Shown: positions 1 through 57,282 of the stretch, one piece after another | Layout of the letters: each line of letters starts with the position of its first letter | Position numbering within the stretch: position 1 is the first letter of the stretch | Assembly: GCA_029261715.1 (NCBI GenBank) | Contig: JAJDAT010000049.1 | Location: 296,778 to 360,777 of the forward strand | Direction: 5' to 3' | From: Nitrospinia bacterium | GTDB lineage: Bacteria > Nitrospinota > Nitrospinia > Nitrospinales > JAJDAT01 | Length of the DNA: 64,000 nucleotides | Notes under the pieces: generated by a model | What the model was told of the DNA's origin: nothing | Seen by the model: only the letters and a program-made list of their open reading frames with translations | Databases searched by the model: none | Translations under genes and position numbers: made by a program

Positions 1-74
1 GATAAAGTGGCGCTAGCGCATCCGGTAATCATAAAACTTATTGTAATAAGAAATAATAGAAGTTTTTTAACCAA
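1..74 (-). CDS. Lipoprotein, 5' portion only (runs off the window start)
   Basis: GGAGG SD (80-84, minus strand), then TTG at 74; reads MVKKLLLFLITISFMITG|CASATL, a signal peptide with a lipobox. Confidence 0.7.
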   Translation of the reverse strand, partial: MVKKLLLFLITISFMITGCASATL

Positions 75-209
75 TTTTACCTCCTAATGATTGTTTATTA
101 GTAAATAACTTGCTCTTATCCTGTGTTTTCCGAAAAAGAGCATAAAAATTTCCAGTAGCCAAGTTGGTCTAATTTATTGAGATTTATTATTTTTTGAGGC
201 AGAAAAAAA

Positions 210-1763
210 TTATTCCCACTCAATGGTGGCTGGCGGTTTTGAACTGATATCGTAAGTGACGCGATTGATTCCGCGTACTTCGTTTATTATTCGATTTGAA
301 ATTTTTCCAAGTAAGTCGTATGGGAGTTGGACCCAATCGGCTGTCATACCATCTGCGCTGTTTACCGCTCGAAATGCAATCACGTTTTCGTAAGTTCGAG
401 AATCTCCCATTACTCCAACCGTTTTAATAGGAAGAAGAACGGCAAATGATTGCCAAATTTCGTAATACAACCCAGCTTCTTTGATTTCTTCTAGAATAAT
501 TTTGTCAGCTTCACGTAAAACTTCTAATCTTTCTTCGGTAACTTCTCCGAGTATTCTGATAGCTAAGCCTGGCCCAGGAAAAGGTTGACGATTTACTATT
601 TCTTCCGGCATTCCAATTTCTCTGCCAAGAATCCGCACCTCGTCTTTAAATAACTCTCTTAGAGGTTCAACCAGTAGTAAGTTCATTTTTTCTGGTAATC
701 CGCCCACGTTATGATGAGTTTTTATTGCTGCAGAGGGGCCTTTGACCGATACCGATTCGATAACATCTGGGTATAAAGTGCCTTGAGCAAGAAAAGTAAA
801 GTTCCCGAGTTTTTTGGCTTTTTCTTCGAAAATCTCAATAAAGGTCCTGCCAATTATTTTTCTTTTTTGTTCAGGATCGGTAATCCCTTCCAAGTTTTTG
901 AGGAATCTGTCTCCAGCCTGCACAACTTCTAAATTAAGTTGAAAGTGATTTTTAAACGTCTCAGCTACTTTATCTCGTTCGCCAAGCCGTAACAGGCCAT
1001 TATCTATAAAAATACAAGCAAGATTTTTCCCTATTGCTTTATGTAAAAGCAAAGCGACAACTGAGGAATCCACGCCCCCGCTAAGGGCGCATAAAACTTT
1101 GCTATCGCCAACAGTTGATTTAATTTTATTGATAGCAAAGCTTGCAAAAGATTCTATCTTCCAATTTGCTTCAACAGCACAAATTTTAAAAAGAAAGTTT
1201 TCTAGAATTTTTTTTCCTTCAACGGTATGGGCCACTTCAGGATGAAATTGCAGCCCATAAATTTTGTTGATGGAATGTTCAACTGCGGCAATAGGTGAAT
1301 TTAAAGTAAATCCAGGAGACTTGAAACCATTTGGATTTTTACTAATTCGATCTCCATGACTCATCCATACGGTGGTTTTGTTGTGAATATTCTGGAAAAG
1401 ATGTGAAAACTCTCGAACCATTAGTTCTGCTTTGCCGAATTCTCTCTTGGGCGCTGGGTCTACTATGCCGCCAAGAGTGTGGACAATTAGCTGCATACCG
1501 TAGCAAAGACCTAAAATCGGTATTTTTAAGTCGAATAACTTTCGATCAACTTTGGGGGCTCCATCTTCAAGAACGCTACTTGGTCCGCCAGAAAGTATTA
1601 TACCTTTTGGCTGGAAGCGAACTATTTGGTCGAGGGTCATAGTGTAAGGATGTATTTCGCAATAAACCTGGCATTCCCTAATTCGTCGGGCAATATTTTG
1701 AGTGTATTGAGAACCAAAGTCGAGGACTAGAATTTTTTCGTCGCAAAGAGATTCAGGAAGCAT
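210..1763 (-). CDS. guaA: GMP synthase (glutamine-hydrolysing)
   Basis: [36 protein letters not shown] and [10 protein letters not shown] motifs. Confidence 0.99.
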
Positions 1764-13737: not shown

Positions 13738-13754
13738 GCCGTATTTAGTTTTAT

Positions 13755-14773: not shown

Positions 14774-14843
14774 TAGCTGATTTATAATTTTTTATTTATA
14801 AAATTAATAACTGCACCAGTTTTATAATATATAGGTGGTTTTT

Positions 14844-15479: not shown

Positions 15480-15561
15480 TTTCATATATTGTGTGAAGCA
15501 TTAAACAATAAGTTTTTACTGATTCTTTATATTGATAAATAATTTTTTCGGAATATAGCGT

Positions 15562-15780: not shown

Positions 15781-15881
15781 ATTTTTTTCAATTTTTCTAC
15801 CAATATCGGAAGTTATGAAAAAAGATCTGACATTGGGTCTAAGGTTTTTTTAGACTTTAAAAGTGGGGGGTAATTAGTTGC

Positions 15882-16385: not shown

Positions 16386-16411
16386 TAAAAACTTAAAGAT
16401 TATATTGAATT

Positions 16412-16855: not shown

Positions 16856-16868
16856 AAAAGAGGATAGT

Positions 16869-36405: not shown

Positions 36406-37431
36406 TTGATGTCTAGTTTAAAAGTTTTAATCGTAGAAGACAGTTTAATGGTTCAGGAAGTTTTAAAGGAAATACTTTCTTCCGATCCAGAAATTGAAGT
36501 GGTTGGAGTCGCTGGAAATGGTCAAGAAGGAATCCAAAAAGTCGAAAAATACAAGCCAGATATTATTACGCTTGATATCAATATGCCAATAATGAATGGT
36601 TTGGATGCCATTGAGGAAATAATGGGAAGTCAGCCGCTTCCAATTTTAGTCGTTTCTAGCTCGGAAGACGCCAAAACGGCTTTTGACGCTTGTTCTAGGG
36701 GAGCGTTAGAGGTATTTCCTAAGAGTAAACTCGATGCCGCTAGGGCAGACGTTTTAATTCACAAAGTTAAATTATTATCCAAAATAAAAGTTATTCGTCG
36801 ATTTAAGAAGAGAAACAGCAGAGTTGCAATTCCAGATTTCAATACGGCGCCAGCAACTGAATCGAAGTTTGAAAAAGTAGTGGCTATAGCTTGTTCCACC
36901 GGAGGACCAAAGGCTCTTTCGGTTATTTTATCTGAGTTAAGTCCTCAATACCCTTTCCCAATAGCAATTGCGCAACACATGGAAAATGGTTTTGGAGAGG
37001 GTTTTGCGGCTTGGTTAAACGACATCTCAACTAATCCTGTTTGTGAGGCTAAAGAAGGAGATTATTTGGCTTCTGGGAAAGTATATGTTTGTCCCCCTGA
37101 ATCTAATATGCAAGTTGCAACAGATGGGAGAATAAGTTTTCTTGGTGTCAATGAAATGAATTCTTTCAGGCCGTCTTGCGATATTTTATTAGCCTCTTTA
37201 GCGTATTCATTTCGAGAGAAAAGTGTTGGATTGATATTGTCAGGAATGGCAGATGATGGAGTAGCTGGAATTGAAAAGATTAAAACTAGCGGCGGGACAA
37301 CCATTGCTCAGGATGAAGAAAGTAGCGTTGTTTTTGGTATGAATTCGCGGGCAATCAATGCGGGAGTTATCGAAAGAGTTTTGCCATTAAACGAAATCGC
37401 AATGTATCTCAATCAAATAGCAAAGAGATAG
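36406..37431 (+). CDS. cheB: Chemotaxis response regulator protein-glutamate methylesterase
   Basis: REC domain plus IACSTGGP, IAQHM, SGMADDG. Confidence 0.97.
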   Translation: MMSSLKVLIVEDSLMVQEVLKEILSSDPEIEVVGVAGNGQEGIQKVEKYKPDIITLDINMPIMNGLDAIEEIMGSQPLPILVVSSSEDAKTAFDACSRGALEVFPKSKLDAARADVLIHKVKLLSKIKVIRRFKKRNSRVAIPDFNTAPATESKFEKVVAIACSTGGPKALSVILSELSPQYPFPIAIAQHMENGFGEGFAAWLNDISTNPVCEAKEGDYLASGKVYVCPPESNMQVATDGRISFLGVNEMNSFRPSCDILLASLAYSFREKSVGLILSGMADDGVAGIEKIKTSGGTTIAQDEESSVVFGMNSRAINAGVIERVLPLNEIAMYLNQIAKR

Positions 37432-37434
37432 TTA

Positions 37435-38925
37435 ATGACTATTGAAACGATTAATCAGGGAATAGATGTTTTGCCTTTTAGGCAACTTTTGATTGATCGA
37501 ATATCTACGGGGTACAAAGAAGATACGTTGAATCAATTGCCTGCGGCAATAGTTCAGCGGATGGAATTGAATCAAATAATTAAACCGGCTGAATATTTTT
37601 TTCTTTTACAGAAAGACAACGCTGAATTTACAAAGTTAGTAAACTTGTTAACTGTAAATGAAACCTATTTTATGAGAGAACAGGGGCACTTTAATGTTCT
37701 AGTTAACCGTTTATTCCCGGAATTTATCAAAAATAGAAAAGGTAACGAAAAGTTTAAAATATTGAGTGCAGGATGCTCTTCTGGGGAAGAGTTGTATTCC
37801 GCTTTGATTTCCTTAACTTTAAAGTTTGGCAAAGAAATATTAAAAACGATACATGCCGAGGGAGTTGATATTGACTCTGAAATATTAGAAAAAGCTAAAA
37901 AAGGAATTTATTATCAAAATTCTTTTAGGAATGTTGATACTTACTTTATCGACGCTTTTTTCTCAGAATATGAAGAGCAATATAAAATTAACGAAAATTT
38001 TTTAGATTCTGTTTTTTTTAGTCAAGTGAACCTTGCGGACTCAAGTTTCTCATTTGATTCAAAGTGGAACGTGATTTTCTACCGCAATGTTTCGATCTAT
38101 TTCGTTCCAGAAATTAGAAAAGAAATATTTAATAATTTGGTAAATGCGTTGAAAGAACCAGGATATTTATTTACAGGGATTGTTGAAACAAGTCATCACA
38201 ACTTTGGTATTTTGCCGTTAGAAGAAATAGACGATCATTATTTATTTAATAAGAAAAGTGAATTTTTTAATAAAAATAGTATACGGCCTGATAAATTTAA
38301 GAAAGCTAAGCGAGATTTACCCTACAAAAAGAAGACTCAAAAATTATTTTCTGGTTCTCAGCAAGAAAAACTTAAGAAAGATAATTCAACAAGGAAAATA
38401 ACAAAGGAAGATTCCTATGAGGAAGCTTTTCAAAAAGCTTTGGGATTAGCTAAAAGAGGACAAAGACAAAAAGCTTTAGAGAGTATTGAAAGTATTTTTA
38501 CTAAATGGACTCCTAACGCCAACGATTATTTGTTACGCGCTAATATTTTAGTTAGTTTAGAGAAGTTGGATCAAGCTTTAACTGATTGTTTGACTGCATT
38601 GGAAATTGAAGAATGGAATCGCCAGGCATATTTGCTTTTGGGTATTATTTCTCGTTTGAAAAAAAATATTCCGGAAGCGGTTAAGCGCTTTAAAGGAGCT
38701 ATTTATATTGAATCGACCTGTTGGTTATCTCATTTTTATCTTGCCGAGATATTTATAGAAAATGAGAACTTTAGGGACGCAAAAAGAGAATATGGAATAT
38801 CGCGAAAGCTGTTATTAGAATCGGGTAGCTCTGAATGTGGTTTGATGATATTTCCTCTTTCATTTAATCAGGAGCAGCTAGTCCATCATTGTGAACGCAA
38901 ATTAGGCGAACTGGAAAAGCGCTAA
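37435..38925 (+). CDS. cheR: CheR methyltransferase with C-terminal TPRs (WspC-like)
   Basis: NETYFMRE, SAGCSSGEE, IFYRNV.IYF, then TPRs. Confidence 0.95.
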   Translation: MTIETINQGIDVLPFRQLLIDRISTGYKEDTLNQLPAAIVQRMELNQIIKPAEYFFLLQKDNAEFTKLVNLLTVNETYFMREQGHFNVLVNRLFPEFIKNRKGNEKFKILSAGCSSGEELYSALISLTLKFGKEILKTIHAEGVDIDSEILEKAKKGIYYQNSFRNVDTYFIDAFFSEYEEQYKINENFLDSVFFSQVNLADSSFSFDSKWNVIFYRNVSIYFVPEIRKEIFNNLVNALKEPGYLFTGIVETSHHNFGILPLEEIDDHYLFNKKSEFFNKNSIRPDKFKKAKRDLPYKKKTQKLFSGSQQEKLKKDNSTRKITKEDSYEEAFQKALGLAKRGQRQKALESIESIFTKWTPNANDYLLRANILVSLEKLDQALTDCLTALEIEEWNRQAYLLLGIISRLKKNIPEAVKRFKGAIYIESTCWLSHFYLAEIFIENENFRDAKREYGISRKLLLESGSSECGLMIFPLSFNQEQLVHHCERKLGELEKR

Positions 38926-38935
38926 AACTTTACCT

Positions 38936-41296
38936 ATGGCTTTTGATAAGAAAAAATTCATTCATAAATTTGTTGATGAAGCCAACGATCATATAGACAG
39001 GCTGAACGAAGGTTTAGTGAGTTTGGAATCTAATCCTGGGGATGAAGAAACCGTAAGCGAAATCTTTCGATCTGCGCATACTATTAAGGGTTCTTCTAGA
39101 ATTTTAGGATTAATTTCTATAAGTGTAGTAGCGCATAAACTAGAAGACGCTCTTTCGGCTTTAAGAGATGGAAAGATTTCTCAAAGCAAAGTTTTATTTA
39201 ATTTGCTTTTTAAAGCTGCTGATTTGATCTCGGAGTTTGTTCAAAGAGTTCAAGAAGGCGAGGAAGTTGAAGATGATACCACTGAAATTTGTGAACGTTT
39301 AGAAAAGGCCGCTTTAGGCGAACTAGAAGATGAGGCTGTTACCGAACCGCCTCCAGAAAAAATAGTTGAAAAAGCTGAAGAAAAAGAAAGTTCCTTTAAC
39401 AAAATAGAAAAGGAAGAATCTCTTGAAGAAGAAACTCCTGTTGTTAAAACAACCACTGAGCAAGTTTCTTTAAAAAAAGAATCTTCCCCCCCATCAGATG
39501 TATCTGTTCCTAAAGACGTTTCAGTCTCTCCGTCTTCTCCTAAACCCCAAGCGCAAAAACCACTAAAGAAACCTCGAGTTTCTGAGACAGTTCGAGTCAA
39601 AACGGAAAAGTTAGATGAAACAGTTAATTTAATGGGTGAAATTGTTTCCAATCATATCCGTTTAAAGCAAAACTGGGTTGATATAAACGAAATAGGAAAA
39701 GTTTCTAAGAAATACTTAGAAACCTTTTCAGGTTTTACGTATGAAGACGGGAAGCTAAGTTCAGAGGATAGTCGTGATCTTTTTGAACAATTTCAGGGCA
39801 TTTATGGGAAGTTAAGGCAACTTTCAGTTTGGACCAAAGATGTTTTAAATTTTCAGACTTTATTGACAGATCAGTTGCGTGAAAAAGTTTTGAAAATGAG
39901 AATGTTACCTTTGTCCACTGTCTTAGACGCTTTTCCAAGAATGGTCCGCGACATATCTTCTACATGCAATAAAGAGGTTAATTTTTTAGTCGAAGGCGGA
40001 GAAACTGAGCTAGATAAAAAAATTATAGAAAAAATTGGAGACCCATTATTACATATGATCCGCAACAGCGTCGATCATGGTATTGAAGCTCCTGCCGATA
40101 GAATACGGGATGGTAAGCCTGAAGCTGGAACCATTAGATTAAAGGCTTCCTATGAAGGCGGTAATGTTTTGCTTGAATTGCGCGACGATGGTCGTGGAAT
40201 TCCTTTGAGAAAGATCAAGGAAAAAGCCTTGGCAAAAAAAATGTTTGGTGAAGAAATGCTGAACAATATGACCGAAAATGAAATCGTTAATTTGATTTTT
40301 AGACCCGGGTTTAGCACTAGCGCTGCAATTACGGATGTTTCGGGACGGGGAGTAGGAATGGATGTCGTTCGAGAAAACATCGTTATGAACTTAAAGGGAT
40401 CTATTCAGGTTGAAACGGTAGAAGGGAAAGGAACTTGTTTTTTTATAAGGTTGCCGTTGACCCTTGCCGTAATGCGCGTTTTACTGATTTCTGTTTCAAA
40501 TCACAAGTTTGCTCTTCCTTTAGACTCGGTTAAAGAAATAGTTAAAGCAAGTAAAGAGCAAATAATTAAGGTCGTAGATAAAAGAGCGATTTCTTTGAGG
40601 GACGAAATCATTCCTATTGTAAATTTGGACTTTGCTCTAGACTTGCCTGTAAAAAGTAATGGACAGTCAGAAGAAGTTAATATTGTGCTTGTAGAGATGG
40701 GAAACGAATGCTTAGGACTAGTGGTTGATACAATTTTAAGCGAAGAAGATATGGAAATTAAATCTCTACCCAACCACATGAAAAATAATGAAATAGTTTC
40801 AGGAGTTACTTTGTCGGGTAAAAACGAAGTTGTGCTAGCTCTACACGTGCCTAAATTGTTTTTTATTGCTAAGGACGAAAATCCCGATAAATTGACTCCA
40901 GAATCCGAAGTCAATTTTATTGAAGAACAAAAACATAATATATTAGTTGTTGACGATTCCGAAAGCGCTCGCGAAGTGCAAAAGAGTATTTTAGAGTCTT
41001 TTGGCTATAAGGTTGCGCTTGCTGTGGATGGTGTAGATGGGTATAAGGTAGCGCAGGAGAAACAATTCGATTTAGTGATATCCGATATTGAAATGCCGAG
41101 GATGAATGGATTTGAATTTATCAAGAAACTAAAGATGGAAGATTCCTATCGACACACGCCAGTTATTGTCGTTAGTTCACGGAATGAAGAATTATATAAA
41201 AGGAAGGGAATGCAGGCTGGCGCTGATGCATTTATTGTAAAAAGCGGATTTGATCAATCTAAATTGTTGAAAATGGTGCAAAACTTAATACATTAA
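38936..41296 (+). CDS. cheA: Hybrid CheA histidine kinase with C-terminal receiver (WspE-like)
   Basis: HPt FRSAHTIKG, RNSVDHGIE, DDGRG, SGRGVGMD, CheW domain, REC domain. Confidence 0.97.
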   Translation: MAFDKKKFIHKFVDEANDHIDRLNEGLVSLESNPGDEETVSEIFRSAHTIKGSSRILGLISISVVAHKLEDALSALRDGKISQSKVLFNLLFKAADLISEFVQRVQEGEEVEDDTTEICERLEKAALGELEDEAVTEPPPEKIVEKAEEKESSFNKIEKEESLEEETPVVKTTTEQVSLKKESSPPSDVSVPKDVSVSPSSPKPQAQKPLKKPRVSETVRVKTEKLDETVNLMGEIVSNHIRLKQNWVDINEIGKVSKKYLETFSGFTYEDGKLSSEDSRDLFEQFQGIYGKLRQLSVWTKDVLNFQTLLTDQLREKVLKMRMLPLSTVLDAFPRMVRDISSTCNKEVNFLVEGGETELDKKIIEKIGDPLLHMIRNSVDHGIEAPADRIRDGKPEAGTIRLKASYEGGNVLLELRDDGRGIPLRKIKEKALAKKMFGEEMLNNMTENEIVNLIFRPGFSTSAAITDVSGRGVGMDVVRENIVMNLKGSIQVETVEGKGTCFFIRLPLTLAVMRVLLISVSNHKFALPLDSVKEIVKASKEQIIKVVDKRAISLRDEIIPIVNLDFALDLPVKSNGQSEEVNIVLVEMGNECLGLVVDTILSEEDMEIKSLPNHMKNNEIVSGVTLSGKNEVVLALHVPKLFFIAKDENPDKLTPESEVNFIEEQKHNILVVDDSESAREVQKSILESFGYKVALAVDGVDGYKVAQEKQFDLVISDIEMPRMNGFEFIKKLKMEDSYRHTPVIVVSSRNEELYKRKGMQAGADAFIVKSGFDQSKLLKMVQNLIH

Positions 41297-41382
41297 TTTT
41301 TATATATACCTGAGCTAGAATTATACGTGAACGTTTTAATCTTAGTTACAATTAGGGAAATGAATTAGAAAGCGGAAAAAGA

Positions 41383-43632
41383 ATGGATCCTAATAATATA
41401 TTAATTGTAGACGACGACAGTTTTGTCCGTGAAATATTGGTCGATATCTTAGAATCTGAAGATTTCAAAACTGAAACTGCGGAAAACGGTTTAGACGCTC
41501 TTAACAAATATAAGGAAGATGGTTCTAAATTTGATTTAGTTGTTTCTGATATCAATATGCCAATTATGGGTGGAGTTGATTTGATTAAGTCGCTTCGTAA
41601 CGATGTTCAATCTGAAACTCCAGTCGTTGTTTTATCAGGAAATAACGAAGTTGCTATTGCCATAGACGCGATCAACAGTGGCGCAAGCGAATATATTTTG
41701 AAGGATGAGAATTTACAAGAGACAATCATTTTAGCTATTAACAAGGCTTTAGAAAAAAAACGAATTATAGATGAAAATCGTGATCTAGTTAAGAACATCA
41801 CCGAAAAAAATAAAGAAATGGGAGGTATCATTCACCGTATGACAGAGTTAGGAACAGCTCTTTCTGCGGAGAAAAATTTTCAGAACTTAATGGAAATTAT
41901 CATTTCTAACGCTCGTGAATTAACGTATGCGGATGCAGGTACCTTGTATTTAATCGAAAATGGAAAACTATCCTTCAAAATAGTTCAGAACGATACTTTA
42001 AAAATTCATTTAGGTGGAAAATCTAGCGAAGAAATTAAGTTTCCCCCAGTAGAAATAAAAGAATCTAACGTTTCAGGTTATTCGGCCTTAAAGAAAGAGG
42101 TTGTTAATATTCCAGATGTTTATTCCTCGGAATTGTTTGATTTTACCGGACCCAAAAAATTCGATCAGACTTCTAACTATAGATCTAAATCAATGTTGGT
42201 AGTTCCTATGGTAAATCGAATGAATGAGGTTGTTGGCGTTCTTCAATTGCTGAATTCTAAAGATTCTGAAACAGGTGAAGTGGTCACATTTTCAGCAAAT
42301 TCTGAAGAGTACATCAAAGCCTTAGGGTCTCAAGCTGCAGTAGCTGTAAATAATTTGTTACTTGAAGCGAAAGCGGAAAAACTATTTGAAGAGATTTTAG
42401 ATATAAAAAATTACAATGAAAGCATCCTTGAAAGTCTTACTAATGGCGTTATTACATTGGATGCTAATAATTTGATTATTAAATGTAATGCCGCTGTTTT
42501 AAGGATTTTAGAGGCCCAAGAAGATCAAATTATTAATCAATCTGCGCAGAAATTTTTTGCACAAAATAATCGCTGGGTATTGGATAACTTAAAAAGGGTT
42601 ATTCAAATGGGATCCCCGGCCATAGTTATGGATACCGAGTTGGTTTTTGATGATGATCGCGTTGTTCCTTTAAACCTTACGGCAGTTCCCTTGAAAAATG
42701 CGAAGTCTGAATTAATTGGGTCCATGTTAGTTCTAGAGGATATTACTTCTGAAAAGCGGATGAAAGGGACCCTTGCGAGATATATGGATAAGGATGTGGC
42801 TGAGCAATTGATGGAAGGCGGAGATGATATGCTGGGCGGCCAAAGTCAGGAAGCTTCAGTTTTGTTTTCTGATATTCGGAGCTTTACAACCCTTACCGAA
42901 AAATTAGGTCCGGCGGGGACTGTTGCAATGTTAAATGAATATTTTACCGAAATGGTTGAGTATATTTTTAAATATAAAGGAATTCTTGATAAATATATAG
43001 GAGACGCAATTCTAGCTGTTTTTGGAGTTCCTTTTACGAACGAGCAAGATCCCGAAAATGCCGTAAATGCTGCAATTGGGATGGTTAAATCTCTTAAAGA
43101 GTTTAATGCAAAGAGAATTTTAGTGAATAAAGACCCTATCGATATTGGAATTGGAGTTAATACGGATACTGTTTTGGCTGGAAATATTGGATCTGAAAAA
43201 AGGATGGATTATACCGTTATTGGCGATGGGGTTAATTTAGCTGCGAGACTAGAAGGGGCCACCAAGGCTTATGGAGCAAAGATTTTGATTAGCGAATCCA
43301 CGAAAAATAAGTTAACTCAAGACCATATATACCGCGAAGTTGACAAATTAGTTGTAAAAGGAAAAACTCAACCCGTTAGTGTTTTTGAGGTTTTAGATTT
43401 TCATGACGAATCAACTTTTCCGAAAATGCAGGAATGTATAGAAATATTTAACGAGGGGTATCAATCTTATCTTAGGCGCAATTGGGACGAAGGCATTATG
43501 TTTTTTGAAGAAGTGTTGGCGATCAATCCAAATGATAAACCAGCATCATTATATGTTGAACGATTGCAGCTTTATAAAGAGAATCCACCTGCCGATGGCT
43601 GGGACGGTTCTTTTGTAATGACCACTAAATAA
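41383..43632 (+). CDS. REC-GAF-PAS-class III adenylate cyclase with C-terminal TPR
   Basis: REC (VDDD..SD.NMP), GAF (SKSMLVVPM..GVLQLLN), PAS, LFSDIRSFT, DKYIGDA, DYTVIGDGVNLAARLE. Confidence 0.95.
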   Translation: MDPNNILIVDDDSFVREILVDILESEDFKTETAENGLDALNKYKEDGSKFDLVVSDINMPIMGGVDLIKSLRNDVQSETPVVVLSGNNEVAIAIDAINSGASEYILKDENLQETIILAINKALEKKRIIDENRDLVKNITEKNKEMGGIIHRMTELGTALSAEKNFQNLMEIIISNARELTYADAGTLYLIENGKLSFKIVQNDTLKIHLGGKSSEEIKFPPVEIKESNVSGYSALKKEVVNIPDVYSSELFDFTGPKKFDQTSNYRSKSMLVVPMVNRMNEVVGVLQLLNSKDSETGEVVTFSANSEEYIKALGSQAAVAVNNLLLEAKAEKLFEEILDIKNYNESILESLTNGVITLDANNLIIKCNAAVLRILEAQEDQIINQSAQKFFAQNNRWVLDNLKRVIQMGSPAIVMDTELVFDDDRVVPLNLTAVPLKNAKSELIGSMLVLEDITSEKRMKGTLARYMDKDVAEQLMEGGDDMLGGQSQEASVLFSDIRSFTTLTEKLGPAGTVAMLNEYFTEMVEYIFKYKGILDKYIGDAILAVFGVPFTNEQDPENAVNAAIGMVKSLKEFNAKRILVNKDPIDIGIGVNTDTVLAGNIGSEKRMDYTVIGDGVNLAARLEGATKAYGAKILISESTKNKLTQDHIYREVDKLVVKGKTQPVSVFEVLDFHDESTFPKMQECIEIFNEGYQSYLRRNWDEGIMFFEEVLAINPNDKPASLYVERLQLYKENPPADGWDGSFVMTTK

Positions 43633-43695
43633 TAATTTTGCGACAAAAGACATTTTTGATTATTCATTTTAGTTTGAAGAGTATGGGGGATTGCT

Positions 43696-44256
43696 GTGGG
43701 CGAAGAAATTGAAAAAAGAAAAAGCGATCGAATACTTGAAGCGATAAAAAAACGTTTGGATGAAAAGCAAACTATCCAAGTTGAAGAGAAAAAGGTTGAA
43801 CTTGTCGTATTTACATTGAACGACGCCTTTTATGCATTTTATGGGAAAGACGTTAAAGAAATTCTTTCAGTATTAACTATTTACTTTGTTCCAGGGACTC
43901 CAAAATATATTTTAGGAATTGTTAATGTCCGTGGGGATATTCAATCTGTGTTGAATATCAGGACATTTTTAAATATACCGGAACAAGGATTAACTGAGGG
44001 AAAAGGACGGATTGTGATTGCTGAGAAAAATGGCGTACGATCTGGAGTTCTAGTCGATTCTGTTGTAGATGTTGTCGAAGTGCCAGAGGAGTCTATTAAA
44101 CAAGCGATTTCAACTTTGAATGAAGAGATTCGATATTTTGTTGTTGGAGAGACAACGTATAAAAACAATAATGTCGTTTTGTTAGATATAGGAAAGGTTT
44201 TTGAAAAAATATCTGAAGGTAAAATCGAACCATCAGCTGAAATCCCAAATAAATGA
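43696..44256 (+). CDS. cheW: CheW scaffold protein
   Basis: VPGTP..LGIVNVRG.I, GVLVDSVVDV. Confidence 0.93.
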   Translation: MGEEIEKRKSDRILEAIKKRLDEKQTIQVEEKKVELVVFTLNDAFYAFYGKDVKEILSVLTIYFVPGTPKYILGIVNVRGDIQSVLNIRTFLNIPEQGLTEGKGRIVIAEKNGVRSGVLVDSVVDVVEVPEESIKQAISTLNEEIRYFVVGETTYKNNNVVLLDIGKVFEKISEGKIEPSAEIPNK

Positions 44257-44744
44257 GTGGAGTTGAAACTAAATCAAATAGAGAGTCTGATCAAGTTTCC
44301 GATGATGAAATTCGCCTATTGATTTTTAAAATTATGGGTGTCTGTTTTGGCGCAGATATGGAACAAATCGAAGAGATGGTCGATTTTTCTCAAGCTCAAC
44401 AAGAAGATTGGGATATTAGAAACTTTACAGAGGCTATTTCCTTTAGAGATATTGAGGTTGAATATAAAAAACCAAAAGTGATTTTAATAAAAGATAGCGA
44501 CCAAGACGTTGGTATTGTTATTGATCAACCGGAAAACATTGTAAATATTAATATTAAATCGATAAGATTGCTGCCGCCTCTTCTTGAAAACCATAAAACG
44601 GTAGACGCTATATGGGCTGCAGTGTTTTTGGGTGAAGAATTAGCTTTGTTAGTTGATTTTTATCGGCTTCAAAACTCTTTACCCAAAATAGAGAATCAGA
44701 AATTGTTGGAAAATTCTGAAGATGCTGAAGTTGAATCAAATTAA
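44253..44744 (+). CDS. Divergent CheW-like protein
   Basis: LLIF.I..CFGAD...IEE, GIVID.P.NI, LLVD; position in the che operon. Confidence 0.75.
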   Translation: MSGVETKSNRESDQVSDDEIRLLIFKIMGVCFGADMEQIEEMVDFSQAQQEDWDIRNFTEAISFRDIEVEYKKPKVILIKDSDQDVGIVIDQPENIVNINIKSIRLLPPLLENHKTVDAIWAAVFLGEELALLVDFYRLQNSLPKIENQKLLENSEDAEVESN

Positions 44745-44777
44745 ATTTGTAATTGCATAATAATTAAGAGGTGGATT

Positions 44778-44915
44778 TTGACGACAACGCGCAAACTTTT
44801 CAAAGCCTGCAGTATTGCGGTCAAAAACTTTTATCGTAGTTGTTTCTATTCTGATTCGCAGGCAGTAAACCGTCGTTTGATTAATAACGAATTGGTCCGG
44901 GAGGACGTTAAATGA
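44778..44915 (+). CDS. Candidate 45-aa small protein coupled to the chemoreceptor gene
   Basis: GAGG SD at 44768-44771, TTG at 44778, open for 45 codons; TGA overlaps the MCP ATG (ATGA). Confidence 0.45.
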   Translation: MTTTRKLFKACSIAVKNFYRSCFYSDSQAVNRRLINNELVREDVK

Positions 44916-47347
44916 AGAACTGGTCTTTAAACAAAAAAGCAATATTCGTATTTAGTTTGATGATCGTAGTTATGGGGATTTGCGCTTACGTCATTTTTGA
45001 CTCTTTAAGTTCAGCTCAAAAAGACGCGGATATAACTAACGCTCTAGGAAGACAAAGAATGTTAAGTCAAGCTATGGGTAAGGCTGCCTTAGGAAATGCT
45101 ATGGCTAAAAGCCGTAAGCAAAATATTGTTCAACGCGTCATGTCTTTGGATCGTTATATTACTCAAATGAGAGGGACATATACAAAGGAAGTAATAGGAC
45201 CAGCCAAAGAAAAAGATCTCACAATTAGTATGGACCCTGAATCCGAAGGACATCCTGCAATTCCATTCCCAGCTACTTTGACTCGAATGGTCAACGCTAA
45301 ATTTGGAGCAGGAAGAGATTTTACTATCGATATAATTTCTCCAGATCCAGTAAACCCTAATAAGGGGTTAATGACGGATATGGATAAAGAAGCTTATGAC
45401 TTTTTGACAAAAAAATCGAAGCGCGTTTATACAAAGACTTTGGAATCAGATAATAAGTTATATATCAGATTATATACTGCGGATAAAGCTACCGTTCAGG
45501 CTTGTGTCGATTGTCATGTGGCTTTGAAAGGCGGTAAAAAGTTTACTATCGGCGATGTATTTGGTATCCGAAAGTACAACTTGTTGTTTTCAGCCGACAT
45601 TGCAAGAGGTAAGGGTGAATTAAATGCAAGTTTGGTAGAGTTTGATCGCGCTAAAGAAATTTTTAAAAAAACCTTGCGCGCTATGCGAAAGGGAGGGGAA
45701 TACCCTACGGATATGGGGCTTAAAGCGACGGCTTTTATAAATTCCATAAATAATGAATCAATTCAAGATAACCTGGAGGAAGTAGATAGAGTTTTTTCCA
45801 AATTCTTGGCGGCAGTGGATAAACTTCTTACCTCAGAAGTCGATTCTCCAAAGTATAGAGATGCGCAACAAGAAATCTTGGTTTTATCTAATGAGTTACG
45901 AGATAAAAGCAACAAAATTGTAGAATTGTATAACCGTCTCGCGAATGAAAATCAAAAACGCATAAAGAGCACGGTTATAGTTTTTATCATCCTGACATTA
46001 ACGGCTTTAATTTGCATAGCTTATTTCTTTTCGACTTCTGTCGTAAAACCGGTTCGCAAAATTTCTGGAGTTATGGGTGAGATAGCTAAGGGAAATTTCT
46101 TGCAAGAAAATTTGCCGGTTAATTCTGAAGACGAAATTGGAATTTTGTCCAATACATATAATACTATGTTAGGCACTATGAAGGAGATAGTGAATCAAGC
46201 AAAAGATATAGCTGCAGGCGATTTATCGAAGACTTATGAGTTGAAGGGAGAGCTTTCTATAGCCTTTGGGAAAATGACTCATGAACTTAGAGATAAACAA
46301 AAAGCGGATATTGAGTTTAAAGAAATGGCTACAGAGCGACAAGATCAGGCTGAAGATTTGAAAGATAAGGTTGACGCTATTTTGGAATGCGTGAGCGCTG
46401 CGGCTAAAGGCGATTTGAGTAAGCATATTGACGTAAAGGGAGAGTCTGCTATTGGACAAATGGGAGAAGGTCTGGAAATGTTCTTTGATAATTTGTCGGT
46501 GAACATGAAAGGAATAGCTAATATGGCTAACGATTTAGCTTTATCCGCTAAAGAAATTTCTAGTTCTGTACAAGACCAGGCTTCAGTCTCGGCTGAGCAA
46601 TCTGCTTCAGTAACTGAAATTTCTTCTACGGTTGAAGAGCTTTCCGCTTCGTCAAATCAAGTAGCGGAAAATGCCGATTCTGTAGCTCGGATTTCGACTG
46701 ATTCGTTACATGATTCAGAACGTGGTATGAAAGCTATTGGGTCATTGAAGCTTAAAATGGATGAGATTTCTGATGATAATCAAGTTGGAATGAAAGAAAT
46801 TGTCGAATTAGGTAGAAAATCAAATGAAATTGGCAAGGTTATGGAGATTATTAACAATATTGCGGATCAAACTAAGTTAATTGCGTTCAATGCCGCTATT
46901 GAGGCCTCCAGCGCAGGCGAAGCAGGAAAACGTTTTGGGGTTGTAGCGGTTGAAATTCGCCAATTAGCCGATAATGTAATGGATTCGACGGGTGAAATTC
47001 AAAGTAAGATTGACGAAATTCAACAGGCAATTAATCGTTTGGTGATAAATTCAGAACAAGGATCAAGTCGAATTAAAGAAGGAAATATGTTGGCGGGACA
47101 AACGATTGAAGAATTGGAGAGGTTGGTTGACAGAGCTAAGAGCGCTGCAGATGCGGCATCTCAGATTTCCCTTTCAACAAAGCAGCAAAAAACTGGAACA
47201 GACCAAGTATTGTTGGCTTTAAAAGAAATTGTTAACGGAACGCGACAATCGTCTGCCGCAATTAAGCAAACCTCAAACGTGACGCATAAATTGTCTGAAA
47301 TGTCAGAAAAACTTAATGAATTAGTTAGTAGGTTTAAACTGAATTAA
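44912..47347 (+). CDS. Methyl-accepting chemotaxis protein with PilJ/NarX-like sensor and inserted c-type haem (Tll0287/DUF3365-like) domain
   Basis: TM1, NALGRQRMLSQ, CVDCH, TM2, HAMPs, IADQTKLIAFNAAIEA signalling tip; GGAGG SD. Confidence 0.93.
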   Translation: MKNWSLNKKAIFVFSLMIVVMGICAYVIFDSLSSAQKDADITNALGRQRMLSQAMGKAALGNAMAKSRKQNIVQRVMSLDRYITQMRGTYTKEVIGPAKEKDLTISMDPESEGHPAIPFPATLTRMVNAKFGAGRDFTIDIISPDPVNPNKGLMTDMDKEAYDFLTKKSKRVYTKTLESDNKLYIRLYTADKATVQACVDCHVALKGGKKFTIGDVFGIRKYNLLFSADIARGKGELNASLVEFDRAKEIFKKTLRAMRKGGEYPTDMGLKATAFINSINNESIQDNLEEVDRVFSKFLAAVDKLLTSEVDSPKYRDAQQEILVLSNELRDKSNKIVELYNRLANENQKRIKSTVIVFIILTLTALICIAYFFSTSVVKPVRKISGVMGEIAKGNFLQENLPVNSEDEIGILSNTYNTMLGTMKEIVNQAKDIAAGDLSKTYELKGELSIAFGKMTHELRDKQKADIEFKEMATERQDQAEDLKDKVDAILECVSAAAKGDLSKHIDVKGESAIGQMGEGLEMFFDNLSVNMKGIANMANDLALSAKEISSSVQDQASVSAEQSASVTEISSTVEELSASSNQVAENADSVARISTDSLHDSERGMKAIGSLKLKMDEISDDNQVGMKEIVELGRKSNEIGKVMEIINNIADQTKLIAFNAAIEASSAGEAGKRFGVVAVEIRQLADNVMDSTGEIQSKIDEIQQAINRLVINSEQGSSRIKEGNMLAGQTIEELERLVDRAKSAADAASQISLSTKQQKTGTDQVLLALKEIVNGTRQSSAAIKQTSNVTHKLSEMSEKLNELVSRFKLN

Positions 47348-48852: not shown

Positions 48853-49923
48853 TTATTTAGAGTTAATTGGGTGAGAAACGTTTTTTTGGTAATCTTTTGC
48901 GCAACGAAATCCAAAACTATTATTGCGAACTTCAGGAGTAAAAAAGCTGCGGTTAAATGTGGGAGCGCTTAATCCGCATCCATAAGATAAACAGTCGAAC
49001 CATGATCCTCCTTTTAAAACACGGTTTCTTTTGCCATATTCTTGTCGGGGAATTGTATTTCCCTCATGAGGCAAGTAAAAGCTATCCACCCATTCCCAGA
49101 CATTCCCAGACATATCAAATAGTCCATATGGACTTTTACCATTAGGATAAGAGCCTATTGGTTTAGTCCCTATGGAGCCATTATAGGGATTATTTGACCT
49201 ATCTAAAGTCCAACTATTACCCCAGGGATAGATTAGTCCATTTTCCCCTCTAGCGGCTTTTTCCCATTCTTTTTCGGTTGGTAAACGTTTGCCATTCCAT
49301 TTACAGTAATTTGTTGCATCAAACCAGTTTACATAGATTACAGGATGATTTTCTTTTCCTTTTGGGATTTGTCCATTTGCCCAGTGATAAGGTGCTTCAG
49401 ATTTAGTAGCGTCGACATATTTTTTATAGTCTTGATTGGTTGTTTCGAACAAATCGATATAAAACGCTTCTGTTTCCGAAATAAATTCAGGCGATTCGTC
49501 GTCCCAACGGTCGTTAGAACCCATAATGAATTCGCCTTTTGCAATGAAAGCCATGTTGTGGGAAGCAAGTTGTTTTGTTTTTAAGCTCTTGGTTTGAGGG
49601 ACTTGTTTGAGAGTTCTTTTATTATCTTTTTGAAGGCTATTTGCCGCAATTTCAAGCTTTTTGGGGGCTCTATTTTTTAAATTTGATTTAAATGGCGATA
49701 TCGAAATAGGATTTTTTTTACCTAAGTGACATTGTTTACATGCAGCTGATTTAAATTTATCTTTTTTTGTTTTTATAAGGTTCTCTGGCTGATGACAACT
49801 TGTTTGACAAGTTTGCTCAAAGTTTTTAAAGTGAGAAAAATTTTCAAAACCGAAAACAGTCGGCACAGTTTCAAAAATGTAAAATCCTTGGACAATAAGA
49901 AAAATAAAAAAAGTTAAGCGCAT
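48853..49923 (-). CDS. Exported FGE-sulfatase (SUMF1) domain protein with N-terminal c-type haem motifs
   Basis: GEFIMGS, HPVIYVNW, RLPTEKEWEKAARG, DMSGNVWEW, GFRCAK; CQTSCH and CKQCH near the N-terminus. Confidence 0.93.
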   Translation of the reverse strand: MRLTFFIFLIVQGFYIFETVPTVFGFENFSHFKNFEQTCQTSCHQPENLIKTKKDKFKSAACKQCHLGKKNPISISPFKSNLKNRAPKKLEIAANSLQKDNKRTLKQVPQTKSLKTKQLASHNMAFIAKGEFIMGSNDRWDDESPEFISETEAFYIDLFETTNQDYKKYVDATKSEAPYHWANGQIPKGKENHPVIYVNWFDATNYCKWNGKRLPTEKEWEKAARGENGLIYPWGNSWTLDRSNNPYNGSIGTKPIGSYPNGKSPYGLFDMSGNVWEWVDSFYLPHEGNTIPRQEYGKRNRVLKGGSWFDCLSYGCGLSAPTFNRSFFTPEVRNNSFGFRCAKDYQKNVSHPINSK

Positions 49924-53066: not shown

Positions 53067-53615
53067 TTAATTAGGTAAGGTTTTACGCAAGACGTTCAAA
53101 GAGTTTAAAAGAGTTACAGTGTGGTTGTCATAATCTAATTCACCCGCTACCCAATCCTTAAAGTCGTGATAAAGAGTGGATCCTGCGTCTCTTATTTGAC
53201 TTTTTTTAATATCGATCACGTCTAATACAGAACTAGCAAGTATCCCTCCACGGATATCTTCTTTTTCCAAAATCATGATTCGATTGTTAAGGTTTTTTTC
53301 TTCAGCAGGTAGTCCTAAGAAATCTCCAATTTCCAAAACCGATTCAATTTCTCCCCGGATGTTGACTAACCCTAATATATGCTTAGGCGCAGTGGGAACT
53401 GGATTGATTTTTTTGATAGGAATGATTTCTGAGACGTCCAATCCTTTTAGCGCAAAATAAGCTCCGCGGATTTCGAATATTACTAAAATTATTAATGGTT
53501 CCTTTACGACACCAGTAGCGCCTTTCTTTTCGCGAATTTTTTTGATTCGTTTAACAATTCGCGAGGACTTTTCTTTTGGGTTTTGATCGGATGTCATTTC
53601 TGTTTCTTTTGCCAA
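53067..53615 (-). CDS. cheW: CheW protein outside the che operon
   Basis: PVPTAP..LGLVNIRGEI; paralogous to 43696..44256. Confidence 0.9.
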   Translation of the reverse strand: MAKETEMTSDQNPKEKSSRIVKRIKKIREKKGATGVVKEPLIILVIFEIRGAYFALKGLDVSEIIPIKKINPVPTAPKHILGLVNIRGEIESVLEIGDFLGLPAEEKNLNNRIMILEKEDIRGGILASSVLDVIDIKKSQIRDAGSTLYHDFKDWVAGELDYDNHTVTLLNSLNVLRKTLPN

Positions 53616-53627
53616 AATAAATGGCGC

Positions 53628-55079
53628 TCAATTTTCAATAAGTAAATTCCAAGTATAATCTGGAGTTGCGGATAACAAATCCATAGAAAGATTTAATATA
53701 TCGCCTTTACGGAAACACGGTTTTGATTCTAAATAAGATTCCTTTGGAATTCCATCCTTATCGTAAAAAGTAAGACGGATGCCGGGTCTTCCTTTTATAA
53801 ACCACCCTGATCCTGATTCCATCTTACACATTAATCGAACATTCAAACATTTATTAGTACCGCATTCTGTTTCTTTAACCTTTAATACTTTTACTGCTTT
53901 ATTTTCAGGAAGCTGCAAACTATATTTTATAGGATCTTGTAGTTTTTTTCTAATTTCAATCCGGGTGAGCTGATTTATACGATCGGTTTTTTTTCGACTT
54001 TGTTTGACTGATTCAATTTCTTCTTGAAGTTCGCGTTTCAATAAAGCTAATTCCTGAAGTAGTTTTTCTTGTTTTTTTAATTCTTCTTTTCGTTTTTCTT
54101 CAAGGTTTTGTTTCTTTCCTCTGAGTTGTTTTGATAGTTTAGTTACGCGATCAGAAATAGATATTGGGAAAACAAAATCTCCCTGATCAAGAACTGCGTC
54201 TCGTAATTTCCCGTATTGTGGAACTTGACTTCCTTTAGAGTAATTAGCAACGACATTTTCTAAAAATTGACCCAATTCGGAGCCGGTAATATATCCATCT
54301 CGGTTCAAGTCTCCATCTCCATCAAAAGCGTGGACGAATTGTCGTCGAAAAATACTTTCGTCAGGAACTGATTGATTGGCGCGACCAGCGGAAATAAATT
54401 GCCGAACAGGTTTTCCTGTTTTTTCTTTAATAATTTGAGGGACGCTACGGCTAGTGGCGAAAATAGAACCGGCAAAGCAACTATCAAAAATGAATAAAGC
54501 ATGTTTGGACTGAATGGCGCGTGCGTATACTTCAATGTTTTGCATGCTCATAGCATGACGTAAAAATCCTCGTTTATCTATATTTGGATTTGGAGCGCCT
54601 CTTGGGACAATGAATCCCATTTCTGTTCCTCCATATTGAGGAACTAACGTGTGACCGTGGCCGGCAAAATAAAACAATAATCTGTTTTTCTCCGCAAGAC
54701 CATATCGGTCTATAAAGCTTTCAAATGCTTGATTAAGCTCTTCGCGTTTTGGATCCATAATAACTTCAACCGAAAATCCTAATGTCTCAAGAACTTCTTT
54801 TACTGATTTTATGTCTGAAATGACTCCAGATAAAGAAGGCCACAAGCCTTCATAGTCGCTTATTCCAATTAACAATGCATGACTTTCATTGTATAGACCA
54901 ACGGTGTTTCCTTCTGAGTCAATGATTGGGACAGGAATAATACCGCGATTTACCGGGCTATTTTGGTTATTGAAGTGTGATGATTTAGATACGGTGGGTT
55001 TGTTTTGTTCCAAACTTGGTCCAGCACACCCTAAAAAGTAGATTAAAAAAGCGGCGGTAATTTGGAGATGCAATTTCAT
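53628..55079 (-). CDS. Caspase-family (peptidase C14) lipoprotein with coiled coil
   Basis: ALLIGISDY, YFAGHG (catalytic His), DSCFAG (catalytic Cys); ATG at 55079 gives MKLHLQITAAFLIYFLG|C lipoprotein signal. Confidence 0.9.
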   Translation of the reverse strand: MKLHLQITAAFLIYFLGCAGPSLEQNKPTVSKSSHFNNQNSPVNRGIIPVPIIDSEGNTVGLYNESHALLIGISDYEGLWPSLSGVISDIKSVKEVLETLGFSVEVIMDPKREELNQAFESFIDRYGLAEKNRLLFYFAGHGHTLVPQYGGTEMGFIVPRGAPNPNIDKRGFLRHAMSMQNIEVYARAIQSKHALFIFDSCFAGSIFATSRSVPQIIKEKTGKPVRQFISAGRANQSVPDESIFRRQFVHAFDGDGDLNRDGYITGSELGQFLENVVANYSKGSQVPQYGKLRDAVLDQGDFVFPISISDRVTKLSKQLRGKKQNLEEKRKEELKKQEKLLQELALLKRELQEEIESVKQSRKKTDRINQLTRIEIRKKLQDPIKYSLQLPENKAVKVLKVKETECGTNKCLNVRLMCKMESGSGWFIKGRPGIRLTFYDKDGIPKESYLESKPCFRKGDILNLSMDLLSATPDYTWNLLIEN

Positions 55080-55164
55080 GAGTCGACGGAATAAAGTTTT
55101 TTTACATGATATATCGAATTTATTTAAAATCCCAAGAGGTTTATATATTGGAGTTTTATAAAAA

Positions 55165-56253
55165 TTAATGAAATCCAAAGATGGGTTCAGTAAGGTTCCG
55201 TAGATTAGGCGTATTTACTAGATATTCCGCTCCTATTGCGCTGATCTTATTTTCTTCTAAGGTTAATATTTTTAATTGGGTTGAGTTTGAGGATTTTGCA
55301 ACAGCGCGGGCGCCTTCGTCCCCAATGAAGTTGTAGTTTAAGTCAAGAGTTTCTAGGTTTTTTAAAGTCGAAGATTTAGCTAGCGCTTTAGCTCCTTCAT
55401 CTCCAATTTTATTGTTCGATAGCTTTAAAGATTTTAATTGAGAAACGGCTGGAGAATTTGCGATTTGGATTATAGAGGCATCGGTAAGATCGTTGTGAGC
55501 TAAATTCAATTCAATTAAATTTGAAACAAAGGGAGTTTCTAGAAGGGCCTCAATACCTATATCGCCAATGTAATGATTTTCAAGATTGTTTAATACCCCT
55601 TTTTTTTGCATTTCTGAAAATTTAATTTTATGTTCGAACTTTAAAAGCGCTTTTTTGCCACGCAGCCCAATTGGATTGTATGAAAGATATAGTTCCATCA
55701 AATTATTTAATTTTTCAGAAGAAGTTAAGTTGATTGCTCCGTCATCGCCAATATTGTTGTAGCTTAGATTTATTTCTTTTAGTAAAGGCAAAGTATCCGA
55801 ATTAGCAAGAAACGTAACTCCTTTAGCGCTTATATTATTCCGATATAAACTTAACGACTTTAATTTTGAGAAAATTGGCGATTTGGCGATCGCATTGACG
55901 CCGATATCGGAAATATTATTTTTGCCTAATTCAAGCGTTTGCAATCCAACCAAATATTTTGATTTGGCTAGTTCAATGATGCCTTCATCGCCAATGCCAG
56001 TTTCATATAAAACCAAAGTTTCGACGTTTTTAAGTAAGGGGGATTGGGCCAAAAACTTTGCGCCTTCTACACCAATTACTTTTGATTTGATTCTTAATGC
56101 GTGCTTATTCCTTCTAACTTTTTTCTTTACGTATTTTTCTAGTTTTTCAACAGTTATTGGTTCTGAAGCGCCTAATGAAAAAAAACAGCATATTAAAAGC
56201 CAAATCCAGGGTTTTGTTTGAAATGAAGTGTTTTTGGTTTTTTGCGGAATCAT
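55165..56253 (-). CDS. Exported RI-like leucine-rich repeat protein
   Basis: Signal peptide; L..L.L..N.IGD.GA.ALA repeats. Confidence 0.93.
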   Translation of the reverse strand: MIPQKTKNTSFQTKPWIWLLICCFFSLGASEPITVEKLEKYVKKKVRRNKHALRIKSKVIGVEGAKFLAQSPLLKNVETLVLYETGIGDEGIIELAKSKYLVGLQTLELGKNNISDIGVNAIAKSPIFSKLKSLSLYRNNISAKGVTFLANSDTLPLLKEINLSYNNIGDDGAINLTSSEKLNNLMELYLSYNPIGLRGKKALLKFEHKIKFSEMQKKGVLNNLENHYIGDIGIEALLETPFVSNLIELNLAHNDLTDASIIQIANSPAVSQLKSLKLSNNKIGDEGAKALAKSSTLKNLETLDLNYNFIGDEGARAVAKSSNSTQLKILTLEENKISAIGAEYLVNTPNLRNLTEPIFGFH

Positions 56254-57264: not shown

Positions 57265-57282
57265 CTTTTTGATCTTTGAATT

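Follow-up and report, generated by a model that had tools for sequence, protein, structure and literature searches.

We analyzed a 64,000-nucleotide window from a Nitrospinia bacterium (GenBank assembly GCA_029261715.1, contig JAJDAT010000049.1, positions 296,778 to 360,777 of the forward strand); the positions given below are those of this window. The gene at 44912..47347 on the plus strand was recognized from its open reading frame, its translation and Pfam matches to MCPsignal, HAMP, Tll0287-like and PilJ as encoding an 811-residue methyl-accepting receptor with a composite periplasmic sensor. Two conclusions about this receptor are well supported. Its sensor is a four-helix bundle of the PilJ/McpN/NarX type with a heme Cache domain placed between helices 1 and 2, and the protein is the membrane receptor of a Wsp-like Che pathway, of the nonflagellar type, with a REC-GAF-PAS-cyclase output. 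The best explanation for this architecture, which we put forward tentatively, is a two-tier, dual-input receptor of the Wsp-like pathway, one input being nitrate or nitrite and the other nitric oxide (NO) or redox state.

All parts of the receptor described here are encoded on the plus strand. The first transmembrane segment (TM1, residues ~9-29, 44936..44998) was located with 19-residue Kyte-Doolittle windows scoring above 1.6 and lies inside a long helix of the AlphaFold model, residues 6-100. The second (TM2, residues ~353-373, 45968..46030) was located by hydropathy and is spanned by model helix 313-392. Because these two segments flank them, residues ~30-352 should be extracytoplasmic. 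Bundle helix 1 (residues ~31-74, 45002..45133), the N-terminal part of the PilJ-type four-helix bundle, was delimited by the Pfam PilJ match, profile matches and alignments with relatives that have no insert. It is followed by the nested c-type heme Cache domain (Tll0287/DUF3365, also called sCache_heme), which covers residues ~75-235 by alignment and 68-230 by structure match (45134..45616), as defined by Pfam PF11845, Foldseek, VIA-align and the gap against the insert-free relatives. The sequence C198-V-D-C201-H202, a c-type heme attachment motif, is found at 45503..45517, on a short predicted helix (residues 196-205). Bundle helices 2 to 4 take up residues 236-352 (45617..45967; AlphaFold model and profile matches) and consist of helix 242-260, a beta-hairpin with the invariant G261-G262-x-Y-P265, helix 282-307 and helix 313-352. 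On the other side of TM2 are the first HAMP domain (residues 373-421, 46028..46174; PF00672, E = 5e-18), one of three HAMP stretches in the protein, and the signaling domain of methyl-accepting chemotaxis proteins (MCPs) at residues 598-773 (46703..47230; PF00015, E = 1.5e-31). An earlier note on this DNA had quoted a stretch just after TM1, DADITNALGRQRMLSQ, together with FPAT..R, PVNPN and CVDCH at 45503-45517. All of these were found in place in the reading frame 44912..47347: DADITNALGRQRMLSQ corresponds to D38-Q53 (45023-45070), FPATLTR to residues 119-125 (F119-P-A-T-x-x-R125) and PVNPN to residues 146-150.

The same note had read the sensor as a NarX/PilJ-type bundle split by a Tll0287-type c-heme domain, and Pfam, profile searches of the PDB, AlphaFold models compared by VIA-align and Foldseek, and the insert-free relatives all agree with that reading. 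When the sensor alone (a 375-residue stretch scanned separately) was used, PilJ (PF13675) matched residues 32-83 with 28.2 bits (E = 2.1e-6), above the curated Pfam cutoff of 26.6 bits, and the match covered positions 3-58 of the 114 in the profile. A PF13675 match at E <= 0.01 was found in 46 of 55 sensor-only relatives. A family profile built from these 55 relatives matched the ligand-binding domain (LBD) of PilJ (7zjr) with an E value of 6.9e-5, helix 1 (31-69) and the C-terminal helices (272-343 against 216-287) being matched separately. The profile also matched McpN (6gcv) at E = 1.2e-3 through the N-box helix (positions 39-80), aligned to AGAQRMLSQ of McpN. NarQ was reached at an E value of 2 only.

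The AlphaFold model, built from a 67-row alignment, had a pLDDT of 89.0 and a pTM of 0.74. It begins with helix 6-100, which comprises TM1, the N-box helix and the first Cache helix, and continues with a beta-rich core (104-227), helix 242-260, a hairpin (262-276) with the invariant GGxYP, helix 282-307 and helix 313-392, which leads into TM2. The predicted fold is thus a PilJ-type bundle with the heme domain between helices 1 and 2, as the insertion proposed earlier called for. Since the Cache domain occupies the distal loop that joins helices 1 and 2 of the bundle, helix 1 continues without interruption from TM1 past the N-box and on into the first Cache helix. When the model was compared by VIA-align with 48,161 representative PDB chains, the top match was the McpN LBD (6gcv; Z = 15.7, rmsd 2.1, 126 of 126 residues, 19% identity). 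This match spans model residues 35..346, so that helices on either side of the insert contribute to it. The other nitrate sensors gave Z values of 13.1 (NarQ) and 11.0 (NarX).

Receptors without any heme domain were found among the best 150 matches of the family profile. There were 14 such full-length proteins (P0193, P0194, P0196, P0216, P0220, P0221, P0223, P0228, P0229, P0230, P0252, P0254, P0258 and P0259). With MAFFT, they aligned to residues 1 to ~74 and 236 to 375 of the window protein, leaving a single gap of ~161 residues. Comparison of the 55 composites with the 14 insert-free receptors by hhalign gave a probability of 100% and an E value of 8.3e-67 over 216 columns at 44% identity, again with one gap (~72-232). 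Pfam PilJ aligned over positions 2-104 of 114 in insert-free P0228, and stops near positions 54-58 in the composites. Insert-free P0193 was predicted to form an uninterrupted bundle that has this hairpin too (14-row alignment, pLDDT 89.5); its model matched McpN with a Z of 15.6 over 126 of 126 residues, second to LytS-N (Z = 16.1). The GRQRML, F251/L255 and GG positions are kept in composites and insert-free relatives alike. Therefore, the bundle appears to have a conserved job of its own. Assembly errors were rejected as a source of the insert-free forms, since no two of the 14 junctions are alike and since, for both P0193 and P0221, the two members come from separate assemblies.

These comparisons bear on the possibility that the resemblance arose by chance or as an annotation artifact, with no PilJ homology and nothing more than the long helix at the N terminus common to all Cache domains. 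For the whole 811-residue protein, the PilJ score was indeed 23.8 bits, under the cutoff of 26.6. However, the C-terminal helices also match the PilJ LBD, the hhalign comparison with insert-free PilJ-type sensors reached 8.3e-67, and Pfam PilJ spans 104 of 114 positions in an insert-free relative; we consider an artifact highly improbable. A chance motif beside an ordinary Cache helix was ruled out by the profile matches in both halves, the PilJ coverage of P0228 and the hhalign result.

The history of the insert was followed in a tree of 235 columns common to all forms, computed with IQ-TREE in its quick mode under a mixture model. The 77 rows comprised 36 close composites, 26 distant composites, 14 insert-free receptors and, as an outgroup, one PilJ kinase from the genome of the window. 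The distant composites formed one clade (97). The insert-free rows were scattered among the close composites, and the starred branches force at least 4 changes. In an approximately unbiased test on a 41-row subset (14 insert-free receptors, 20 of the 36 close composites, 6 of the 26 distant composites and 1 outgroup; LG+G4), monophyly of the insert-free forms was rejected (p = 0.00047, 111.6 log-likelihood units). Since each of the two major clades is composite, the simplest reading is that the nesting arose early and that the heme domain was later lost cleanly and repeatedly; its basis is a tree from a quick search, a single distant outgroup and short columns from helices. The tree and the test suggest, then, that the heme domain was lost repeatedly and that the insert-free form is not ancestral. 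The sensor had previously been described as formed by domain insertion: the nesting itself is real, and within this clade the composite is, to judge from the tree, the older of the two states, with the insert-free forms as repeated losses. The losses seem to have occurred several times at the same junction, in an otherwise identical receptor layout.

The assignment of the nested domain came from several searches. In the whole protein, the Tll0287-like family PF11845 matched residues 67-206 with 35.3 bits (E = 2e-8), and in the sensor alone with 38.9 bits (E = 1.4e-9), the curated cutoff being 24.1 bits; all 55 sensor-only relatives matched it as well. With Foldseek, the AlphaFold model had no PDB match at E <= 0.001, and its best match was Tll0287 (5b82; E = 5e-3, probability 1.00, TM score 0.61 on the target). 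VIA-align of the model with the same structure gave a Z of 12.7 and an rmsd of 3.6 over 143 aligned residues (model 68..230). A Cache-only family profile matched 5b82 at E = 0.0021. When the periplasmic region was compared with the PDB as a single sequence (phmmer), the PilJ LBD was the sole match (E = 0.009) and Tll0287 was missed. The model predicts a Cache fold, with strands within residues 104-227 and CxxCH on the short helix 196-205 before the last strands. C198, C201 and H202 are invariant (55/55 sensor-only relatives and 67/67). According to hydropathy, the heme domain lies between two hydrophobic segments and should be extracytoplasmic. Genes for c-type cytochrome maturation of the CcmF/CcmC type are present in the genome, as three PF01578 (Cytochrom_C_asm) matches in open frames of 670, 240 and 273 residues. 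No Cys other than those of CxxCH is found in the periplasmic part, which leaves no Cys/His ligation of the Tll0287 kind.

The view of DUF3365 as a c-heme sensor domain, taken in the earlier note, agrees with the available text of PMC12889525, where a signaling-linked sCache_heme protein released NO slowly and formed no stable O2 complex. In the accessible part of version 2 of the sCache_heme preprint, a stand-alone sCache_heme protein behaves as a redox protein. Judging from the portions available, the heme Cache domain was recognized as an NO-type sensor only in preprints of 2026. Like the known members of this family (5b82; the Cache_heme-HAMP NO receptor of P. azotoformans; GSU0582 and GSU0935 of Geobacter), the window domain carries CxxCH on a short helix in a Cache fold, is periplasmic and is fused to signaling outputs. 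Unlike the described members, which lie directly between TM1 and TM2 or stand alone, it is nested and has no connection of its own to TM2. The genome of the window also has stand-alone and tandem heme Cache proteins and several ordinary PilJ-domain proteins. L001/L003 (contig C5, ~89.7-90.7 kb) is one open frame of 370 residues with two tandem Tll0287-like domains, each with a CxxCH motif. L002 and L004 are stand-alone heme Cache genes, the latter ~2.4 kb from L008, a composite MCP.

The heme domain could conceivably send no signal of its own and merely stabilize or tune the bundle, or pass electrons, leaving a sensor of oxyanions only. It was dropped several times while the rest of the receptor was kept, and it is therefore dispensable for a working receptor. 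However, the Cache domain holds most of the invariant positions (S106, P109, P120, A121, R125, N148, D158, Y188, D191, CxxCH, G218 and R220), the composite has been retained in no fewer than 5 phyla or classes, and signaling-linked sCache_heme has sensor-like NO kinetics in the available text on it. We regard such a passive heme domain as improbable.

We then turn to the bundle. The N-box-like stretch TNALGRQRMLSQ of bundle helix 1 keeps the nitrate-site motif G46-x-x-R49 within T42-N-A-L-G46-R47-Q-R49-M-L-S-Q53 (45035..45070), as defined by comparison with the published pattern, [IVL]-[ND]-x-A-G-x-Q-R-M-L-[ST]-Q (PMC6381276, available text). According to the same text, R61 of McpN hydrogen-bonds nitrate on the dimer axis, with further contacts from G58, A59 and M62. 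The same G-x-x-R logic is described for NarX and NarQ in the accessible part of PMC8199190, R50 being the nitrate ligand of NarQ. That the Arg of the P-box or N-box binds nitrate, as the earlier note stated, is in line with these two sources. The window protein resembles McpN (PA2788 of P. aeruginosa, 6gcv) in being an MCP whose two TM helices enclose a periplasmic four-helix bundle and in having, on helix 1, an N-box with the Gly and Arg that in McpN hold nitrate on the dimer axis; McpN is also the best structural match of the split helices. In contrast to McpN, its bundle is interrupted after helix 1 by the ~161-residue heme Cache domain, positions 1 and 4 of its N-box are T and L, an Arg (R47) occupies the position of the McpN contact A59, an extra beta-hairpin (GGxYP) lies between helices 2 and 3, and its pathway is Wsp-like with a cyclase output instead of flagellar chemotaxis. 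NarX and NarQ (3ezh, 5iji; P-box) share the bundle fold and a G-x-x-R site near TM1, and some members of the present family are histidine kinases. Unlike them, the window receptor has a nested heme domain and a different output; the sequence similarity is marginal, and its motif is of the GRQRMLSQ (PilJ/McpN) type, not GSLRMQSY.

Conservation was examined in the 55 sensor-only relatives and in 231 stored composites. In the 55, the invariant positions are G46, R49, M55, M86, R87, S106, P109, P118, P120, A121, R125, N148, D158, A161, Y188, D191, C198, C201, H202, G218, R220, G233, F251, T254, A257, G261, G262 and P265. Among the 231 composites, G-x-x-R is kept in 214, R87 in 228 and M86 in 171 (D in 44). 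Loci L034 and L036 were left out of the alignment because of an in-frame stop codon inside the sensor region. There is one such codon in each (L034:4001-5125 and L036:1211-2335), reflecting either a pseudogene or a sequencing error, and L036 has another residue in place of the Arg of G-x-x-R (GRQT).

We infer a dual input of nitrate or nitrite and of NO or redox state from these features, and a number of observations weigh against it. On the side of the bundle, 10 of 12 N-box positions fit; position 1 (T42 for [IVL]) and position 4 (L45 for A) do not. The strict N-box occurs in only 10 of the 55 close relatives, positions 2-12 of it in 57 of the 231 composites, and 17 of the 231 are without G46 or R49. 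Helical bundles often reach Z values of 13-16, with LytS-N, PcaY and designed bundles tying with McpN; since such values are easily reached, the fold match alone is weak evidence. The AlphaFold model is a monomer without heme and displays neither the on-axis pocket nor the distal heme ligand. A related fold does not ensure the same ligand: in the available text of PMC6381276, neither nitrate nor nitrite bound to the PilJ LBD of P. aeruginosa or to the NIT-domain LBD of PA4520, and of the two anions McpN bound only nitrate. On the side of the heme, the candidates for the distal ligand are M86, M107 and H114, the first of which is D in 44 of 231 composites, and in this region the alignment with stand-alone Cache family members is too loose to identify the ligand. 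Finally, narH (TIGR01660) had 0 matches in the genome, a 96.9% complete assembly, and its three molybdopterin oxidoreductases (752-876 residues) adjoin none of the five EB_dh (NxrC-like) matches. Because nitrite oxidoreductase was not found in this genome, the ecological rationale is unproven.

Some of these points would equally suit a single-input heme sensor, in which only the Cache domain senses NO or redox state and the bundle is a dimerizing, signal-carrying stalk that keeps its N-box for packing. The window protein departs from the strict N-box, the structural matches of helix bundles are generic, the 17 composites without G or R still keep the heme motif, and the P. aeruginosa PilJ LBD has the fold and binds no nitrate (PMC6381276, available text). 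PilJ (PA0411), whose LBD has two stacked PilJ modules (7zjr, 8wdf), is like the window sensor in being a two-tier periplasmic sensor and gives the best PDB sequence match for both bundle halves; it is unlike it in that its second tier is a helical module, not a heme Cache domain, and, as far as the available text goes, in that its N-box is not conserved and nitrate is not bound. However, insert-free relatives with the bundle as their only periplasmic domain keep GRQRML, F/L and GG, and the bundle must therefore sense something there. Moreover, the invariance of G46 and R49 in 55 of 55 relatives, with 214 of 231 composites keeping them, is stronger than expected for a mere stalk. We regard a stalk as unlikely, though worth keeping in mind.

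Both tiers could also be sensors with other inputs, the bundle binding another small anion or a periplasmic partner protein and the heme sensing redox state, in connection with electron transfer, instead of NO. R47, which is R in 53 and K in 2 of the 55 relatives, lies at the McpN contact A59 and adds charge to the pocket, and some bundles with this fold have proteins (LytS-XylFII, 5xsd; TorS-TorT, 3o1h) or organic acids as ligands. The invariant M86 and the near-invariant M107 could give a six-coordinate His/Met heme, typical of redox proteins, and a stand-alone sCache_heme acts as a redox protein in the preprint text available. Against this stand the free x position in the published N-box pattern, the distant composite clade with its canonical N-box and a relative (L085) that adjoins an NIT-domain MCP. 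We find this combination of inputs rather doubtful.

Relatives of the sensor are numerous. A HMMER search with the family profile against 1.84 billion cluster representatives (clusters at 50% identity) gave 4427 matches at E <= 1e-3, 846 at E <= 1e-10 and 157 at E <= 1e-30. The whole 375-residue module was found in 188 proteins by a word-indexed search, and a scan of species genomes gave 141 relatives, from which 79 loci were kept. The composite module is mostly found in Nitrospinota, with 52 of these loci; 15 are in Gammaproteobacteria, 5 in Alphaproteobacteria, 4 in Magnetococcia and 1 each in Acidobacteriota, SAR324 and Nitrospirota. The closest relatives, at 86-90% identity, come from metagenome-assembled genomes of Nitrospinales/Nitrospinota. 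Fusions and neighbors were scanned with Pfam in 18 of 25 loci (L009, L055, L039, L060, L022, L064 and L080 were left out). Of the 18, 15 have the module fused to an MCP (one with hemerythrin), 2 to a hybrid GAF histidine kinase and the last to a kinase with hemerythrin. In the distant composite clade, which counts a GGDEF-EAL protein among its members, the N-box is canonical (INLAGRQRML[ST]Q). The genome of the window (5.33 Mb) encodes four composite sensors, two of them MCPs (the window receptor and L008) and two kinases (L005 and L007). In a metagenome-assembled genome of Magnetovibrio, an MCP with an NIT domain, predicted to sense nitrate or nitrite, adjoins a composite-sensor histidine kinase with a hemerythrin tail (L085:7355-9184, minus strand).

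The place of the receptor in a Che pathway was read from Pfam matches in the genes just upstream, all on the plus strand. They encode CheB (36406-37431), CheR-TPR (37435-38925), CheA-CheW-REC (38936-41296), a REC-GAF-PAS-class III cyclase (41383-43632; Guanylate_cyc, no GGDEF), CheW (43696-44256) and a CheW-like protein (44253-44744). Together with the receptor gene, they form a Wsp-like operon (36406-47347) in which the output is a GAF-PAS-class III nucleotidyl cyclase in place of a GGDEF enzyme. The same Che gene order is found beside L010 (86% identity) and L011 (54%), orthologous receptors of other Nitrospinota, and partly beside L013 (52%). The Wsp system of Pseudomonas (WspA-F and WspR) similarly has an MCP, two CheW-type proteins, a CheR with TPR, a CheB, a hybrid CheA-CheW-REC protein and a REC-fused output enzyme in one cluster. 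It differs in its output, REC-GGDEF (WspR) against the REC-GAF-PAS-class III cyclase of the window, and in the composite N-box/heme receptor found here.

If the dual-input explanation is correct, the receptor might work as follows. The membrane-proximal tier would be the antiparallel PilJ-type bundle and the membrane-distal tier the c-heme Cache domain. In the receptor dimer, the two copies of helix 1 would form an on-axis pocket by analogy with McpN and NarQ, where R49 would bind nitrate and/or nitrite. The heme, attached covalently by the Ccm system, would bind NO or report the periplasmic redox state, as the analogy with the P. azotoformans receptor in the available text of PMC12889525 suggests. 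Since the Cache domain does not reach TM2 itself, any heme signal must pass through the bundle. Both inputs would displace the same pair of helices, 1 and 2, so that the bundle could merge them into a single signal, a piston movement or a rotation, passed on by TM2 and the HAMP domains. The receptor would then set the activity of CheA and, through it, phosphotransfer to the REC-GAF-PAS-cyclase, the readout being a cyclic nucleotide and not swimming.

A bolder form of this idea, which we think unlikely as a whole, would make the module a detector of the coincidence or ratio of nitrogen oxides, in which the heme Cache domain (NO or redox) and the nitrate/nitrite bundle would gate each other through helix 1, with a cyclic-nucleotide output in Nitrospinota. 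The heme cassette would have been cleanly excised at least 4 to 5 times, each time leaving a working single-input bundle, and this would be the first nested sensor pair with both members still sensing.

Other genes of the window were also noted. The minus strand encodes, at 48853-49923, an FGE-sulfatase (SUMF1-like) protein whose N-terminal part carries two CxxCH motifs, and FGE-sulfatase genes adjoin composite sensors in 4 of 18 other scanned loci (L010, L011, L030 and L067). At 53067-59436 on the minus strand, a CheW-domain gene is followed by genes for a caspase-domain (Peptidase_C14) protein, two LRR proteins and a large NHL-repeat protein, an odd neighborhood for CheW. At 11099-17777 on the plus strand, four Lcl_C-domain genes follow an NHL-repeat gene and are interleaved with a TPR gene and open reading frames without a Pfam family.

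A full-text literature search combining N-box, PilJ and heme found no description of such a sensor, and a search on PilJ, Cache and domain insertion found nothing relevant. In titles and abstracts retrieved for Nitrospina, methyl-accepting and nitrite, no such sensor was found. The main texts of the sCache_heme preprints, supplements aside, did not mention PilJ or such a helix bundle. The databases already hold both Pfam matches on many composite proteins. Therefore, the novelty lies in recognizing the nesting and the matched insert-free relatives, not in a new fold.

Each of the two building blocks was already known. To our knowledge, no nitrate chemoreceptor module other than the N-box bundle has a defined structure. 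Nitrospinota are the main marine nitrite-oxidizer phylum, and the architecture may let its marine members read nitrogen oxides. Should the bundle be only a stalk, the finding would reduce to a new architecture of the sCache_heme family. The existence of a conserved nested family points to a periplasmic device in which bacteria unite an oxyanion site with a heme gas or redox site. If this is true, the matched receptors with and without the nested domain would be a natural experiment for sensor engineering, and the family would give a direct handle on how the hard-to-grow Nitrospinota perceive nitrite, nitrate and NO.

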